A stretch of 64,000 nt of DNA from Escherichia phage Bp7, in sequence record NC_019500.1, one strand, 5' to 3'. The position numbers and the translations under genes were made by a program. Below are positions 14,648 to 24,383 of this stretch, in pieces. Within the stretch, counting starts at the first letter, position 1, and each line of letters starts with the position of its first letter. The notes under the pieces were generated by a model. The model worked only from the letters and a program-made list of their open reading frames with translations. It searched no databases and was not told the DNA's origin.

Positions 14648-14969
14648 TTTATCTGATTTAGATAATTTTGTTAAAGATACCGAAGAGGGTCCTAGTGACC
14701 CTCGTTATTATGAGAAATCGTTAGATATAATCCGTAAGTCAATGGGTTCTGTTAAGCAGGAAATTATGCTTACTTTACCCGATGGCACTGCTCACATCGT
14801 TTATGTGATGAATATTGTTATTGAGAAAGATGGAAAAGTGTCGGTTGATTTCGGAACACCTTCCGAAGACCGAAAAGAAGAGCTAGCGCTTCATGTAGAA
14901 AAATGTGTTACAATGCAAATACAAGAAGAACTGGATAAAATTAAATCTAAGAGGTGGTGGAAGTGGTAG
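14640..14969 (+). CDS. 40: gp40-like head assembly protein
   Basis: 109-aa ORF between uvsX and 41. Confidence 0.5.
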   Translation: MTDLSDLDNFVKDTEEGPSDPRYYEKSLDIIRKSMGSVKQEIMLTLPDGTAHIVYVMNIVIEKDGKVSVDFGTPSEDRKEELALHVEKCVTMQIQEELDKIKSKRWWKW

Positions 14970-16393
14970 AAACTATTTTGGCTCAACTGCTAGGCAATAG
15001 TGATTATTTCACTAAGGTCTGGCCTTATATGAATGATTCTTATTTTGACCAGGGTCCTGCAAAGACCCTTTTCAAAGAAATTAAAAAACACGTCAATGAA
15101 TATAATGCAGTGCCTTCTAAGAACGCGCTGAGCATTGCATTAGATAACAGTACGCTTTCAGAAGTTGAACATCAAGGCGCTAAAGAGCTTTTAAGTTCAC
15201 TGAATGCCGGACCTGAAGACCAAGAATGGTTGGTTAAAGAGACGGAGAAATACGTTCAGAAAGCAGCGATGTATAATGCAACTTCAAAAATCATTGAAAT
15301 CCAAACTAATGCCGACCTTCCGGTTGAGCAACAAAATAGAAAACTTCCAGGTATTGGTGCTATTCCGGATATCATGCGTGATGCATTATCGATTTGTTTC
15401 GATTCTGAATTAGGTCATGACTGGATGGATGACTATGAAGAACGTTTCAAAAGTTATTCTGATAAAGCACGTAAGGTTCCGTTCCGTCTTAATATTCTGA
15501 ATAAGATTACCAAAGGTGGTGCCGAGTTTGGTACTGAAAACGTATTGTTGGCAGGAACAAACGTAGGTAAGTCTCTTGGTCTTTGTTCATTGGCTGCTGA
15601 TTATCTTCAATCTGGTTACGATGTTCTTTATATCTCCATGGAGATGGCAGAGGAAGTATGTGCTAAGCGTATCGATGCCAACCTTCTGGATGTATCACTG
15701 GATGATATCGATGATGGCCACGTCTCTTGGCCTGAATATAAAGCTAAGATGGATAAATGGCGTTCAACTGCTACTTTAGGTCGTTTAAAGATTAAACAGT
15801 ATCCTACTGGTGGTGCTAATGCCGATACATTCCGTGCATTATTAAACGAATACAAGCTCAAACAAAACTTTGTCCCTCAGGTTGTTATCGTCGACTACTT
15901 GGCTATCTGCGCATCGTCTCGTACGAAAGTTTTCTCTGAAAACAGTTACGGATTGATTAAGATGGTTGCTGAAGAACTACGTGGACTTGCAGTAGAGAAG
16001 AAATTATTGCTGTGGACAGCCGCCCAGACTACTCGTGGTGCAAACGTTGCAGCCGAAATCGATATGGCTGATATTGCTGAATCATTTGGTATTGCACATA
16101 CTGCAGACTTCATGTTGGGTGTGGTCGAGACAGAAGAGTTTGCTCAGATGGGTATGCAGATGGTTAAGCAGCTTAAATCTCGTTATGGTGATAAGAGCTA
16201 CTACAACAAATTTAAGATTGGTGTTAAGAAAGGAAATCAGCGTTGGTACGAAGTTGAAGATGATTCCAACCCGGGCCCAGTGAACACTGTTCGTGAGGCC
16301 ACAGGTGAGATGAATCGTCAAGCCGAGGTCAATCGACAGACGCGTGTTAATAGAAGTGATTTGGACGATTTAGCAGCATCTATCAAATTTTAA
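14954..16393 (+). CDS. 41: gp41 replicative DNA helicase (DnaB-like)
   Basis: 479 aa; LAGTNVGKSLGLCSLAADYL Walker A; co-linear with T4 gp41. Confidence 0.95.
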   Translation: MVEVVETILAQLLGNSDYFTKVWPYMNDSYFDQGPAKTLFKEIKKHVNEYNAVPSKNALSIALDNSTLSEVEHQGAKELLSSLNAGPEDQEWLVKETEKYVQKAAMYNATSKIIEIQTNADLPVEQQNRKLPGIGAIPDIMRDALSICFDSELGHDWMDDYEERFKSYSDKARKVPFRLNILNKITKGGAEFGTENVLLAGTNVGKSLGLCSLAADYLQSGYDVLYISMEMAEEVCAKRIDANLLDVSLDDIDDGHVSWPEYKAKMDKWRSTATLGRLKIKQYPTGGANADTFRALLNEYKLKQNFVPQVVIVDYLAICASSRTKVFSENSYGLIKMVAEELRGLAVEKKLLLWTAAQTTRGANVAAEIDMADIAESFGIAHTADFMLGVVETEEFAQMGMQMVKQLKSRYGDKSYYNKFKIGVKKGNQRWYEVEDDSNPGPVNTVREATGEMNRQAEVNRQTRVNRSDLDDLAASIKF

Positions 16394-16417
16394 GGAGCTT
16401 CGGCTCCTTTTTTGTTT
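16393..16417 (+). terminator. intrinsic terminator with UUCG tetraloop
   Basis: aggagcTTCGgctcc followed by tttttgtttt. Confidence 0.6.
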
Positions 16418-16422
16418 TAAGG

Positions 16423-16451
16423 GTTTACATCTCCTGTAGGCGTGATACTAT
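16423..16451 (+). promoter_or_regulatory. early promoter cassette
   Basis: gtttac, 17 bp, tgaTACTAT, tagacctatcaact. Confidence 0.5.
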
Positions 16452-16475
16452 AGACCTATCAACTTGGAGAACAAA

Positions 16476-16793
16476 ATGAAAACCATCGACTGTAAAGCAG
16501 AATACAAAGTATATTATCACGGAAGTTGTAGTGTCGCTAATATCGGTAATATGCTTTGTCCTCCTGAGGAAACAGGAGTTCTGTCTGAAACCGGTCGTAA
16601 GAAAAACCTAAATCGTGTGTTCTTTACTGAAGATATCGGTTTGGCTAAGATTTATGCTGGACGTGCAGCTCGTTCAGTGGGAGGAGAACCTCGTCTTTAT
16701 CGTGTAATTGCTCCGGTAGATGTGGTTTGTTTAAATGATACTAAAGGCGCTACGGTTTATCATGCTGAATGGGCCTTCTGTGAGGAAATCTAA
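16476..16793 (+). CDS. small protein with Arr-like (rifampin ADP-ribosyltransferase-like) motif pattern
   Basis: YYHGS ... KIYAG ... LYRVIAPVD in a 105-aa protein; carried on its own promoter-terminator cassette between 41 and dmd. Confidence 0.3.
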   Translation: MKTIDCKAEYKVYYHGSCSVANIGNMLCPPEETGVLSETGRKKNLNRVFFTEDIGLAKIYAGRAARSVGGEPRLYRVIAPVDVVCLNDTKGATVYHAEWAFCEEI

Positions 16794-16988
16794 ATGTCTG
16801 AATCAATTAAAGTAAAATTTGTCGGCCATTTCGCCAACGGTGATACCGCTACCAAAGAAGCTTCAGTGCGTGAAAACGATATTGTGTGGGTGGCTACCCA
16901 ATTCGCTGAAGTCAATAGTATTCTAGTCAAGGCCTATGTCGACGACGTAGAAGTTTATGAACACGATGCTCGCATTGAGGAAATCTAA
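16794..16988 (+). CDS. dmd: Dmd-like antitoxin (inhibitor of RnlA/LsoA)
   Basis: 64 aa; VKFVGHFANG...VWVATQFAEVNSILVKAYVDD resembles T4 Dmd; position next to 41. Confidence 0.5.
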   Translation: MSESIKVKFVGHFANGDTATKEASVRENDIVWVATQFAEVNSILVKAYVDDVEVYEHDARIEEI

Positions 16989-17129
16989 ATGGAAGAATTT
17001 GAATGTGTAGTATGTGGTTGTTCGGTCTGTGAAGACCAGGCAGTATTTGATGCTTGGGACAACGCAACCTGTTTAGACTGTGACAGCGAATTCGAAGAAA
17101 TTGCCCATAAACATGAAGGTGAGGAATAA
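16989..17129 (+). CDS. small Cys-rich (CxxC...CxxC) zinc-ribbon-like protein
   Basis: 46 aa, MEEFECVVCGCSVCED...CLDCD; start overlaps the dmd stop. Confidence 0.3.
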   Translation: MEEFECVVCGCSVCEDQAVFDAWDNATCLDCDSEFEEIAHKHEGEE

Positions 17130-17370: not shown

Positions 17371-17400
17371 GTTTACAACGGTCTATGGTAGTGATACTAT
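17371..17400 (+). promoter_or_regulatory. early promoter cassette
   Basis: gtttac, 18 bp, tgaTACTAT, ggacctatcaact, gaggag. Confidence 0.45.
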
Positions 17401-17428
17401 GGACCTATCAACTACCGAGGAGAACATT

Positions 17429-17722
17429 ATGAAAAAGTTATTAATCGCAGCAATCCTTACAGTAGCATCATGTGGCACAGCTCCAGTTACGGCTGGATTG
17501 GATAAAGACCTGTGTGAATGGTCTATGACTGCAGACCAAGAATCAGTCGAACATCAGATTTATGCCGATATCATGAACATCACTAAACGCGACCGCCCTG
17601 ATATGGTTAAAGAAGTGTCAGACCAATTGGCTTCAAGCGGTGTTATGCAATATAACTATGTTTTGTATTGCGATGCCAATTTCGATAACAAAAATATCGT
17701 TAAAGAGGTGACAGGTGAATAA
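17429..17722 (+). CDS. sp: Spackle (Sp) periplasmic superinfection-exclusion protein
   Basis: 97 aa; signal/lipobox MKKLLIAAILTVASC; DKDLCEWSMTADQ and QYNYVLYCD resemble T4 Sp. Confidence 0.6.
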   Translation: MKKLLIAAILTVASCGTAPVTAGLDKDLCEWSMTADQESVEHQIYADIMNITKRDRPDMVKEVSDQLASSGVMQYNYVLYCDANFDNKNIVKEVTGE

Positions 17723-18155
17723 GATTAACAGAAATTTAGTTATCAAAAAACTTCGTTGTAAAAATCCAAATGCACAAGCATACAGGATGTTTTGGAGCGA
17801 CGACCACCAGTACCTAGGTTATTTTCTTGTTGATAGTGATAATATAATTACGTTTGCTCATAAACTTCTTAACAAAGAATTAAACCATTGGCAAGAACTT
17901 ATTGCAGTGAGGTCTAAATTGTTTTCACGTAATGCAATGCACCAATTGGTTTATTTTTTCGCTGAAGGTATTCCTGACAAGGTCGAGTTTGATGGATTCG
18001 AATTTAAAGATATCCTCCCGGACAACGAATTGAACGACTGCATTAATATAGATGTCCCTAGCAAGTATATCAAAAATAGCCTGTTGAAAATTCTGGAAGC
18101 CCCAGTTTATTCAATTGACGACCAGATTTTTAATGCCTTTATGAATCGAGGTTAA
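17715..18155 (+). CDS. hypothetical protein (61.2 position)
   Basis: 146-aa ORF; GTG start overlapping the sp stop. Confidence 0.35.
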   Translation: MNKINRNLVIKKLRCKNPNAQAYRMFWSDDHQYLGYFLVDSDNIITFAHKLLNKELNHWQELIAVRSKLFSRNAMHQLVYFFAEGIPDKVEFDGFEFKDILPDNELNDCINIDVPSKYIKNSLLKILEAPVYSIDDQIFNAFMNRG

Positions 18156-18156
18156 T

Positions 18157-18348
18157 ATGAGTGCAATGTGTACGGGCTCTAAGATTTCTGTATTCGAATT
18201 ATTCGAAGAGTATGAAATCGTATCAAAGGACCAAGAAGCTATCCATATTATTGCCGGTGATGGTGTGACTTGGATTATCCCACTGTATCATGAAGATACC
18301 TATGAAGTCACTGATGCGAATGGTGATAAAGCTATTTTCGTAATATAA
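18157..18348 (+). CDS. hypothetical protein
   Basis: 63-aa ORF. Confidence 0.3.
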   Translation: MSAMCTGSKISVFELFEEYEIVSKDQEAIHIIAGDGVTWIIPLYHEDTYEVTDANGDKAIFVI

Positions 18349-23120: not shown

Positions 23121-23144
23121 GACCTCTAAATCACTGGAGGTCAT

Positions 23145-23714
23145 ATGAACATCGAACAAAAATGTCTTTATCAAGACCGAATCAATTCCAAATTCTCAAA
23201 ACACGAACAGAATCTTTTAGAAAAATGTCTGGATGCTAAAAAAGACCCTAACTTCCATTACGACCTTGACAAACTGGTTCGCAAGCATGTTACTTCAGCG
23301 GTTCCAGTAGAGTTGTATCGTGGGATTACCACCAGAGAACTTGAGCAATTAGAGCTCCTTTCAGTAGGGTGTCAATGGTCTCCTGGTCGAGTTACTTCTT
23401 TTAGTACACAATACTCTCAGGCTCGTCAGTTCGCAGGGGCGTGGGAATATGGAACCAAAACCATTTTAAGTCTCAGGAATGCACCGTTCATTTTCGACTA
23501 CTACAACCATGCTATAGACCTTGTTCTTGCAGGGAATGTAGACGCCCTTGAAATTGATGAAACTCGTATTGACCTCTATGATATGGTCGAAACTGAATGT
23601 GAGTTCATGGTCTCTAGCCAATCGCGATTTGAGATTGTTGCAATCGAAACCGTCAAAAGAGACCCGTATGAAATCGAGTACAAAACAATTCATTTAAAAA
23701 TGTTGGATTTTTAG
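23145..23714 (+). CDS. ADP-ribosyltransferase, ModA/ModB family (R-S-E type)
   Basis: LYRG, SFSTQ and ECEF motifs. Confidence 0.55.
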   Translation: MNIEQKCLYQDRINSKFSKHEQNLLEKCLDAKKDPNFHYDLDKLVRKHVTSAVPVELYRGITTRELEQLELLSVGCQWSPGRVTSFSTQYSQARQFAGAWEYGTKTILSLRNAPFIFDYYNHAIDLVLAGNVDALEIDETRIDLYDMVETECEFMVSSQSRFEIVAIETVKRDPYEIEYKTIHLKMLDF

Positions 23715-23743
23715 TTTACAAGCAAGGATGCTTGTGGTACTAT
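23714..23743 (+). promoter_or_regulatory. early promoter cassette
   Basis: gtttac, 18 bp, TACTAT, ctttctatcaact, gaggag. Confidence 0.4.
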
Positions 23744-23768
23744 CTTTCTATCAACTGAGGAGAATAAT

Positions 23769-24383
23769 ATGTTATATCCAAGCCACCGATTATCAGAGTT
23801 CTATGACAATGTTAAGTGTGATGATTTCCGTGAAAACATCCAGTGCGAAATCAACCAGCAGTATTCTGATTTAGAACAGAGTACCCTCTGGCAGTGCATG
23901 GAAAATAAACCAGATTGTATCCAGGAAACTCTGAACAAAATTATTCGTAAGAACCTGACTTCTGTAGTGCCTGATAAGCTCTATCGAGGCATATCTAAAA
24001 AGACTATGAAGTATCTAGAGTCCACAATGTGTGTAGGTGCGGTAATTGAATTCGACCGCGTGATGAGCTTCTCTAAAGACTTCAACGTGGCAAGGAATTT
24101 CGCGTCTTATAACTTCTACGGCACATTTAATATCTTTTGTATTAATGATGCACCATTTGTGTACAATTATCAGGAAGAAATCTTTAAAATGTTATGTGCC
24201 GCGCCCCCTGAAGAGTTCCCAGGTGCATTTCCTGAATCTACCCGTGTAGCAAACTTACAATTAATCAATGATGAAGATGAGATGATGTTCCCTGCGGGAA
24301 CTACGCTGCGCGTAGACTCTATTGAGAGAAATCCTAAATGGAATAATTACACCATTTGGAATCTTTCCGTTCTTTCTTACTGA
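23769..24383 (+). CDS. ADP-ribosyltransferase, ModA/ModB family (R-S-E type), tandem paralogue
   Basis: LYRG, MSFSKDF and EDEMMF motifs. Confidence 0.55.
   Translation: MLYPSHRLSEFYDNVKCDDFRENIQCEINQQYSDLEQSTLWQCMENKPDCIQETLNKIIRKNLTSVVPDKLYRGISKKTMKYLESTMCVGAVIEFDRVMSFSKDFNVARNFASYNFYGTFNIFCINDAPFVYNYQEEIFKMLCAAPPEEFPGAFPESTRVANLQLINDEDEMMFPAGTTLRVDSIERNPKWNNYTIWNLSVLSY

Follow-up and report, generated by a model that had tools for sequence, protein, structure and literature searches.

A widespread phage gene next to dmd encodes a predicted Arr-like mini ADP-ribosyltransferase: ORF105 of Escherichia phage Bp7

What does Escherichia phage Bp7 encode between its gene 41 and dmd? In the 64,000-nucleotide stretch of NC_019500.1 analysed in this study (hereafter the window), this interval carries an open reading frame (ORF) for 105 amino acids (aa), designated ORF105, whose product supplies the residue numbers used below. 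A preliminary description, made from the letters alone, had presented it as an inserted cassette encoding a possible small ADP-ribosyltransferase of the Arr type. Our analysis places ORF105 in a distinct family, which branches beside Arr within the H-Y-[EDQ]-type ADP-ribosyltransferases. The protein is probably a minimal stand-alone mono-ADP-ribosyltransferase dependent on nicotinamide adenine dinucleotide (NAD+), which would serve as an early host-takeover or counter-defence effector and act on an anionic acceptor other than rifamycin. The gene is placed as follows.

16476..16793, + strand: ORF105 coding sequence, Arr-like mini ADP-ribosyltransferase by prediction (phrog_2110; RB69 ORF040c family), ATG at 16476, TAA at 16791-16793, 105 aa

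The model of the ORF105 product obtained with AlphaFold2 without templates (pLDDT 85, pTM 0.77) has strands at residues 13-18, 48-51, 72-81, 84-87, 94-97 and 99-104 and a helix at 54-68, and it displays the split beta-sheet core fold of ADP-ribosyltransferases. The top match of this model in a Foldseek comparison with PDB was Arr (9iaf; probability 1.0, TM 0.61, 22% identity); pertussis toxin S1, typhoid toxin, PltA, ParT and tankyrase ranked after it. Among the viral models of BFVD, the best match other than the protein itself was a protein of 94 aa from an uncultured siphovirus, named “Ms Rifampin ADP-ribosyl transferase” (35% identity, TM 0.72-0.79), and a PcfJ-like protein, ADP-ribosyltransferases of Bacillus phage G and an ART-PolyVal-like protein came later. 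We regard the ADP-ribosyltransferase fold of the modelled protein as secure.

Is the protein also related to Arr in sequence? Searches of the PDB sequences with a single sequence or a narrow profile gave no match, and the link to Arr emerged only with a broadened family profile; the relative P0120 likewise gave only chance matches in PDB. A profile search over 1.84 billion representative proteins yielded 244 relatives (146 at E<=1e-10), and 34 of the 56 multidomain relatives reach or pass the gathering score of Pfam Arr-ms (best E 1.8e-9). We then compared profiles with hhalign, using a broad family alignment of 140 sequences and an Arr alignment composed of the Arr-ms and Arr-2 sequences (checked against PDB 2hw2, 9iaf and 9iba) and their homologues. 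Residues 11-84 were aligned with Arr-ms 15-82 over 68 columns, at a probability of 96.7% (P 3.6e-10). The three segments that the preliminary description had thought reminiscent of Arr are all present (YYHGS, residues 13-17; KIYAG, 58-62; LYRVIAPVD, 74-82), and they pair with YLHGT, AVWGA and RIFIVEPEG of Arr-ms.

The hidden Markov model (HMM) of the family scored Arr proteins at 19-26 bits (E between 5e-5 and 1e-2 for a database of PDB size; Arr-ms 21, Arr-2 20), whereas KptA received 4-7 bits, and the hhalign comparison with four diverse KptA/Tpt1 sequences ended at 7.8% (P 0.0044). The proposal of a small Arr-type fold is therefore borne out by the fold comparison, by the profile comparison and by weak Pfam and NCBIfam matches of the protein, together with relatives above the Pfam cut-off; the similarity found is to an NAD+-utilising fold, and no unrelated family came to light. 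In sequence the ORF105 family is a neighbour of Arr; its structure is as near to the NAD+ lobe of KptA as to Arr.

This relationship raises the question of whether the phage carries a true antibiotic-resistance gene. The catalytic triad of Arr consists of H19, Y49 and D84, the last lying within DPN[VL] and being 100% conserved in Arr (PMC6092378). Arr is further marked by the motifs SN[YF], DPN[VL] and M[RK][DE]xL and by the rifampicin contacts K91, L92, P96, M126, L130, L133, A139 and I141, and its loop with SN[YF] and the F39 “gate” is located between the NAD+ and rifamycin sites (PMC6092378; 10.64898/2026.05.04.722716). The alignment of ORF105 with Arr, which ends near Arr residue 111, gives the following correspondences.

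Arr H19-G20-T21, NAD+ binding: H15-G16-S17 in ORF105, present
Arr Y49, NAD+ binding: F49 in ORF105
Arr E40-x-G42-R43, loop motif: E38-x-G40-R41 in ORF105, present
Arr SN[YF] loop (F39 “gate”): reads T-G-V in ORF105
Arr D84 in DPN[VL], catalytic: without counterpart in ORF105
Arr beta5-beta6 lid loop (V87, K91, L92, P96), rifamycin contact: about eight residues shorter in ORF105
Arr C-terminal alpha2 helix (M126, L130, L133, A139, I141), hydrophobic rifamycin pocket: absent, ORF105 ending at residue 105

It is thus highly improbable that ORF105 is a genuine rifamycin-inactivating Arr, that is, a resistance gene carried by a phage. Arr-ms and rifampin_ARR are the only named families that match the product, but the NCBIfam score reaches 12.9 bits where 130 are demanded, and SN[YF], DPN[VL], M[RK][DE]xL and the rifampicin-contact residues have no counterpart (Arr features: PMC6092378). 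Since the acceptor-binding elements of Arr (the lid loop with K91, DPN with D84, and the alpha2 helix) are missing, rifamycin would not be the substrate. Judged by its sequence, ORF105 is a homologue but not an orthologue of Arr and falls outside the Arr rifamycin enzymes, and rifamycin resistance was rejected as its function on this ground.

Which parts of the protein have been kept can be read from two sets, 34 phage homologues and 106 divergent representatives of the domain. In the alignment of the 34 homologues (mean column identity 65%) the residues H15, G16, P30, E38, R41, K43, N44, L45, F49 and T51 are invariant, as are A57, Y60, A61, R63, G69, G70, V77 and G91. Four groups of codons stand out.

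16518..16526, + strand: codons of H15-G16-S17, the H-G-[ST] motif for NAD+ binding where strand 1 ends, paired with Arr-ms H19-G20-T21
16587..16607, + strand: codons of E38-T-G-R41-K-K43-N44, conserved basic loop, homologous in the alignment to Arr E40-x-G-R43
16620..16628, + strand: codons of F49-F50-T51 in strand 2, F49 standing at the place of Arr Tyr49 and of the KptA His in the hhalign alignment
16653..16655, + strand: codon of Y60, an aromatic residue 11 positions past F49 in the following helix (54-68 in the model), Tyr in 105/106

H15 and G16 are invariant throughout (34/34 phage homologues and 106/106 domain representatives). Among the 106 representatives the NAD+-site positions H15, G16, [TS]17, F49, T51, A57, Y60 and A61 are invariant or nearly so; position 49 is Phe in 104 and Tyr in two, and T51 is kept in 103. 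The same holds for P29, P30, T33, E38 (104/106), R41 (103/106), K43 (89/106), N44 (84/106), L45 and V48 in the loop between strands 1 and 2, and for R/K63, G69, G70, P72, V77, P79, G91 and V94 elsewhere. This loop is homologous to the inter-site loop of Arr and four residues longer, with K42 and K/R47 flanking its conserved residues, and no other part of the protein is as conserved or as basic (E38-x-G-R41-K-K43-N44 with K/R47 and R63). F49 and Y60 stand 11 residues apart, as do the two tyrosines that stack on nicotinamide in diphtheria toxin and PARP1, which serves here as a lead only; by this analogy, Y60 may be functionally equivalent to the second of these tyrosines.

The company which the domain keeps in other proteins adds a further line of evidence. 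Among the 149 relatives listed, with 153 domain matches, 50 matches are stand-alone proteins (<=150 aa), 29 C-terminal, 21 internal, six N-terminal and 47 partial. The Pfam partners in the longer relatives are ART-PolyVal (6/56, often directly adjacent), NUDIX (3), DUF7178 (3), GNAT (2) and Toprim (2), besides ddrB-ParB, LPD23, CHAP and PcfJ. A NUDIX domain lies directly downstream of the Arr-like domain in P0148 and P0192, and P0184 combines a lambda-type portal domain with an Arr-like domain (683-787) and a 2H/Acb1-like phosphoesterase (833-930). Such an architecture is a hallmark of polyvalent proteins, which phages and conjugative elements deliver together with their DNA (PMC5512222); that paper describes the ART-PolyVal family only and not the Arr-like module. 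The architectures show that the Arr-like domain is deployed within injected multi-effector proteins. Arrangements that recur (P0184, P0148, P0192, P0140, P0180) are portal, Arr-like and 2H/Acb1-like; ART-PolyVal, Arr-like and NUDIX; and ddrB-ParB followed further on by Arr-like and NUDIX. According to the main text of a survey of viral NAD+ systems, NUDIX and 2H enzymes process soluble ADP-ribose derivatives arising from KptA, and Arr-family enzymes are reported there in actinophages and Sinorhizobium phage PBC5 only (PMC9503650).

The phage of the window is T4-like and of Dhakavirus type. Over the 3.4 kb that surround ORF105 it shares 96-97% identity with Salmonella phage ABTNLS3, Shigella phage PSD9, QL01 and WG01, and 92-96% with IME08 and JS10. 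The genes are arranged in the order uvsX, 40, 41, ORF105, dmd, a 46-aa ORF, 61.4, sp, a 146-aa ORF, a 63-aa ORF, 61.1 and 61. The terminator, the early promoter and the 105-aa ORF announced by the preliminary description are all found between 41 and dmd, at 16392-16793, and are accompanied by these features.

16392..16419, + strand: intrinsic-terminator-like hairpin AAGGAGC-TTCG-GCTCCTT with a T-run, overlapping the gene 41 stop codon (consensus scan)
16424..16451, + strand: T4-early/sigma70-like promoter TTTACA-16 nt-(TG)TACTAT (consensus scan, 9/12 matches, extended -10 TG)
16466..16469, + strand: ribosome-binding site GGAG, 6 nt 5' of the ORF105 ATG (sequence)
16794..16988, + strand: dmd, antitoxin against RnlA/LsoA, the next gene in the early unit of ORF105 (Pfam Dmd E 1.3e-15; phrog_2102)

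The hairpin (16392-16409), which overlaps the stop codon of gene 41 at 16391-16393, has a 7-bp stem with four GC pairs and a 4-nt loop and is followed by the tail TTTTTGTTTT. A TTG at 16464 gives rise to an alternative 109-aa version in the mechanical ORF list; we preferred ATG 16476 because GGAG stands 6 nt ahead of it. The resulting protein has a mass of 11.6 kDa and an isoelectric point of 6.7. The ATG of dmd (16794) directly abuts the TAA of ORF105, and, on the evidence of these signals, the two genes would form one early transcription unit served by a T4-early-type promoter.

How much of this arrangement is an insertion, as had been proposed? In T4, only 58 bp separate the stop of gene 41 from the start of dmd, and an early promoter (TTTACA...TATAGT) is located in this spacer. 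The promoter at 16424-16451 thus corresponds in position to the one that T4 has in front of dmd. Relative to T4, comparison of the two sequences leaves only ORF105, between promoter and dmd, and the terminator after gene 41 as additions. Of the supposed cassette, ORF and terminator are thus additional with respect to T4, but the promoter is not; moreover, ORF105 occurs in hundreds of other genomes and its GC content (0.415) is that of the flanking genes. On the grounds of flank-equal GC content and wide occurrence, a recent foreign insertion was rejected.

The preliminary description had called for a survey of presence and absence. A tblastn search found a homologue in 608 phage records across the Straboviridae, infecting Escherichia (214), Klebsiella (116), Acinetobacter (68), Aeromonas (62) and also Enterobacter, Shigella, Cronobacter, Vibrio and Citrobacter. 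The uninterrupted junction of 41 and dmd is found in about 500 phage records, all of the T4 type. In 122 homologues the protein identity ranges from 50 to 99%, and identity of this degree across hundreds of genomes rules out a chance ORF. ORF105 is hence a widespread accessory gene of the Straboviridae without a copy in the T4 lineage, and “absent from the T4 lineage” describes it more fairly than “inserted here”; T2, T4 and T6 are naturally without it. The family is at the same time uncharacterised. Although phrog_2110 matches ORF105 at E 1.5e-60, its function in PHROGs is given as unknown, and the IME08 counterpart is labelled “hypothetical, similar to RB69 orf040c”. A generic label, “putative ADP-ribosyl transferase”, is already attached to the homologues of Konradin, AM101, Xman, SemperBestia, Phynn, KLB31 and Vibrio phage 501E54-1.

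The position of the gene varies among T4-like phages. It lies between 41 and dmd in the Tevenvirinae, including the window; in Acinetobacter phage AM101 it is found between 41 and 61, in Aeromonas phage 44RR2.8t between hoc and 24, beside 30.6 and an HD hydrolase, and in Citrobacter phage Xman five genes away from RnlB. The metagenomic relatives P0120 and P0124 are situated in phage replication modules. Neighbours thus differ among the Tevenvirinae, Biquartavirus, Lazarusvirus, Pseudotevenvirus, a Vibrio phage and two metagenomic phage contigs. Because the gene stands elsewhere in other genera, its adjacency to dmd is weak evidence for an effector role. Inference of function from gene neighbourhood was dropped: the adjacency is clade-specific and carries no functional link.

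Taken together, these data suggest the following scenario for a mono-ADP-ribosyltransferase encoded by ORF105. The gene would be transcribed immediately after infection from its T4-early-type promoter, in one unit with dmd. To judge from homology, NAD+ would be bound through H15-G16-S17 in strand 1, F49 and T51 in strand 2 and Y60 in the helix after it, and we infer that the product is catalytically active. The lengthened basic loop may select an anionic acceptor distinct from rifamycin, most likely a phosphate or hydroxyl of a nucleotide or nucleic acid and, in second place, a host or defence protein. The protein might thereby act in early host takeover or counter-defence, as the free-standing equivalent of the domain found in virion-delivered polyvalent proteins.

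Our preference for a non-protein acceptor is weak, and a protein target of the sort known for AcrIF11 or ModA/ModB has almost the same likelihood. The preference is based on three points: both nearest relatives use acceptors of this kind, no catalytic acid was found, and NUDIX and 2H domains are recurrent partners. Modification of a single protein of the host or its defences, as by AcrIF11 or by Alt, ModA and ModB, which we consider possible but not the first choice, is really a sub-case of the explanation given above with another acceptor. The characterised phage ADP-ribosyltransferases act mostly on proteins (PMC5512222), and ORF105 shares its early unit with other anti-host genes; however, Arr and KptA, its closest relatives in sequence and fold, take non-protein acceptors, and the phage already owns ModA and ModB (window 23130-24380). 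More speculatively, ORF105 might represent a new class of counter-defence, in which ADP-ribosylation inactivates a non-protein, anionic acceptor, be it an immune nucleotide messenger (CBASS, Pycsar, Thoeris, type III CRISPR) or an RNA or DNA end, phosphate or hydroxyl, of the host or its defences; we rate this as doubtful. If true, it would extend the “small-molecule ADP-ribosylation” of the Arr type from antibiotics to immune signalling, and the adjoining NUDIX or 2H domains of the polyvalent relatives would dispose of the adduct.

Several observations weigh against an active enzyme of the Arr type. By itself ORF105 stays below the cut-offs of Pfam Arr-ms PF12120 (E 0.026; 15.1 bits vs 25) and NCBIfam rifampin_ARR NF033144 (E 0.07; 12.9 bits vs the equivalog cut-off of 130). 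The catalytic acid could not be located: Arr D84 lacks a counterpart, and residues 82-105 hold no acid conserved across the 106 relatives. Position 84 is Glu in 54/106 and position 93 Glu or Asp in 23/106, and in the T4-like clade they are Val and Thr; E103 is conserved in that clade only, and E38 lies in the loop between strands 1 and 2. Phe occupies the place of Arr Tyr49, but it is still aromatic, so that nicotinamide stacking would be possible. Model confidence is lowest in the basic loop (loop 30-47; pLDDT 64-73). The neighbourhood is unlike between genera, so the context points to no target, and the domains fused together in polyvalent proteins can be warheads that function independently of each other. 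Finally, no experimental or dedicated computational study of the family was found in the literature searched, where the string “ORF040c” led only to unrelated ORFs of the same number in Aeh1 and RB49.

The active-site formula of the protein, H-F-(none found), resembles, as far as the alignment allows, the H-H-hydrophobic of KptA more than the H-Y-D of Arr. Could the protein then be KptA/Tpt1-like and use a terminal or 2'-phosphate of RNA or DNA as its ADP-ribose acceptor (2'-phosphate removal or 5'-phosphate capping), serving RNA repair or protection together with Dmd and the phage RNA ligases? No conserved catalytic acid was found here, KptA being without one, and the basic loop precedes strand 2, where KptA has the fourth, catalytic Arg of its R-H-R-R tetrad. 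In Citrobacter phage Xman RnlB is encoded five genes off, and relatives are fused to NUDIX and 2H domains, classical KptA partners according to the main text of the survey cited above (PMC9503650). We nevertheless think this unlikely, as the N-terminal RNA lobe with three of the four tetrad residues is absent and only the C-lobe is matched, and the profile similarity is insignificant (hhalign 7.8%; HMM 4-7 bits). Moreover, T4-type RNA repair (Pnkp and Rnl1) yields, to our knowledge, no 2'-phosphates.

The lack of an identifiable catalytic Glu or Asp and the change of Tyr to Phe would also suit a protein that has kept the fold and lost the chemistry, binding NAD+ or ADP-ribose as a regulator or as a sponge for ADP-ribose-derived immune signals. 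With 11.6 kDa and early expression, ORF105 is like phage signal sponges, which are small and early-expressed. On the other hand, an invariant H-G-[ST] with a second aromatic residue is typical of catalytic ADP-ribosyltransferases, and the H-Y-hydrophobic PARPs and KptA are active without the acid. The domain also occurs among enzymatic warheads, beside NUDIX and 2H domains that process ADP-ribose, which implies a product. A non-catalytic binder therefore seems improbable, to about the same degree as a KptA-like enzyme, and we retain a catalytic mono-ADP-ribosyltransferase as the preferred reading.

Some further observations concern the neighbours of ORF105. The longest frame of gene 41 starts with GTG at 14954 and overlaps the end of gene 40, as in IME08; the start annotated in JS10 lies 75 nt further downstream. 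Between dmd and 61.4, a Cys-rich ORF of 46 aa (16989-17129, +; CVVCGCSVC...CLDC, zinc-ribbon-like) matches phrog_13952 at E 4.6e-31, and the corresponding 141-bp gap is unannotated in the reference records of IME08 and JS10. A second early-type promoter, TTTACA-17-tgTACTAT (17372-17400, +), is placed directly 5' of sp (spackle, 17399-17722), and the region from 41 to 61 therefore has at least two early transcription starts.

The 146-aa ORF (phrog_8539; 17715-18155, +) occupies the place of T4 gene 61.2 (adfA, anti-DarT factor). Its similarity to T4 gp61.2 is confined to the final 14 residues (SIDDQIFNAFMNRG, 14/14 identical), the remainder being unrelated, and Pfam AdfA covers residues 133-146 only (E 0.0068). 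The pattern suggests that a cassette was exchanged while the 3' junction was conserved. Near 18155-18157, between the 146-aa and 63-aa ORFs, the window is without about 200 bp (IME08 orf30, 234 bp; L001 3693-3926), a segment that is present in IME08 and the closest relatives; JS10 is short like the window.

ADP-ribosylation during infection has been studied best in the T4-like phages, for which only Alt, ModA and ModB have been considered so far. A fourth, unrelated ADP-ribosyltransferase, of early type and of the Arr/KptA kind, would be present in most non-T4 genera of the Straboviridae (>600 genomes), and the nearest relatives of its family, Arr and KptA, modify non-protein acceptors. ORF105 is small, easily expressed or deleted and found in tractable phages (RB69, JS98-like), which makes the question of its target directly testable. 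That injected polyvalent proteins contain an Arr-like domain too points to an effector in wide use during the first minutes of infection. The result carries two warnings for annotation: weak Arr matches in phage genomes should not be read as antibiotic-resistance genes, and the family should not stay “hypothetical”.

How does the predicted enzyme compare with known systems? Like T4 Alt, ModA and ModB, it would be a phage ADP-ribosyltransferase of the start of infection, but those are far larger members of the R-S-E clade, with unrelated sequences and with protein and RNA targets that are known. In the window modB occupies 23130-23711 (+) and modA 23742-24380 (+), with 98% and 94% identity to IME08, so that three ADP-ribosyltransferases of two unrelated clades (ModA, ModB, ORF105) are encoded there. 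AcrIF11, an anti-CRISPR ADP-ribosyltransferase (PDB 6KYF), has no detectable sequence similarity to ORF105 and modifies the Cas8f protein; it is an analogy of lifestyle without family tie. PADLOC defence-system models gave no match to the ORF105 product at E<=1.

ART-PolyVal/Tox-ART-HYD2 (PF18760) and the Arr-like domain have in common that they are ADP-ribosyltransferase modules of virion-delivered polyvalent proteins, and in at least six representative proteins they stand next to each other. ART-PolyVal is a separate family, with an H-Y-D active site and about 140 residues, and a Pfam scan gave no match of the ORF105 product to PF18760 at E<=1. With KptA/Tpt1 (PDB 9LD3, 6E3A, 7KW8) the ORF105 family shares one or more basic residues just before strand 2, and NUDIX and 2H are fusion partners in both; KptA has no conserved catalytic acid, and none was found in the ORF105 family. 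It differs in having neither the N-terminal winged-helix RNA lobe nor the R-H-R-R tetrad, in the Phe that replaces the strand-2 His, and in its insignificant profile similarity.

The closest comparison is that with Arr (Arr-ms PDB 2HW2/9IAF, Arr-2 9IBA, PF12120). Common to both are H-G-[ST], the E-x-G-R loop, strand 2 of the form h-aromatic-h-[ST], the A-x-x-aromatic helix and the “hYhVxP” strand. ORF105 is about 40 residues shorter, its inter-site loop is four residues longer and basic, and, whereas Arr is a bacterial resistance gene, ORF105 is encoded by phages and preceded by an early-type promoter.

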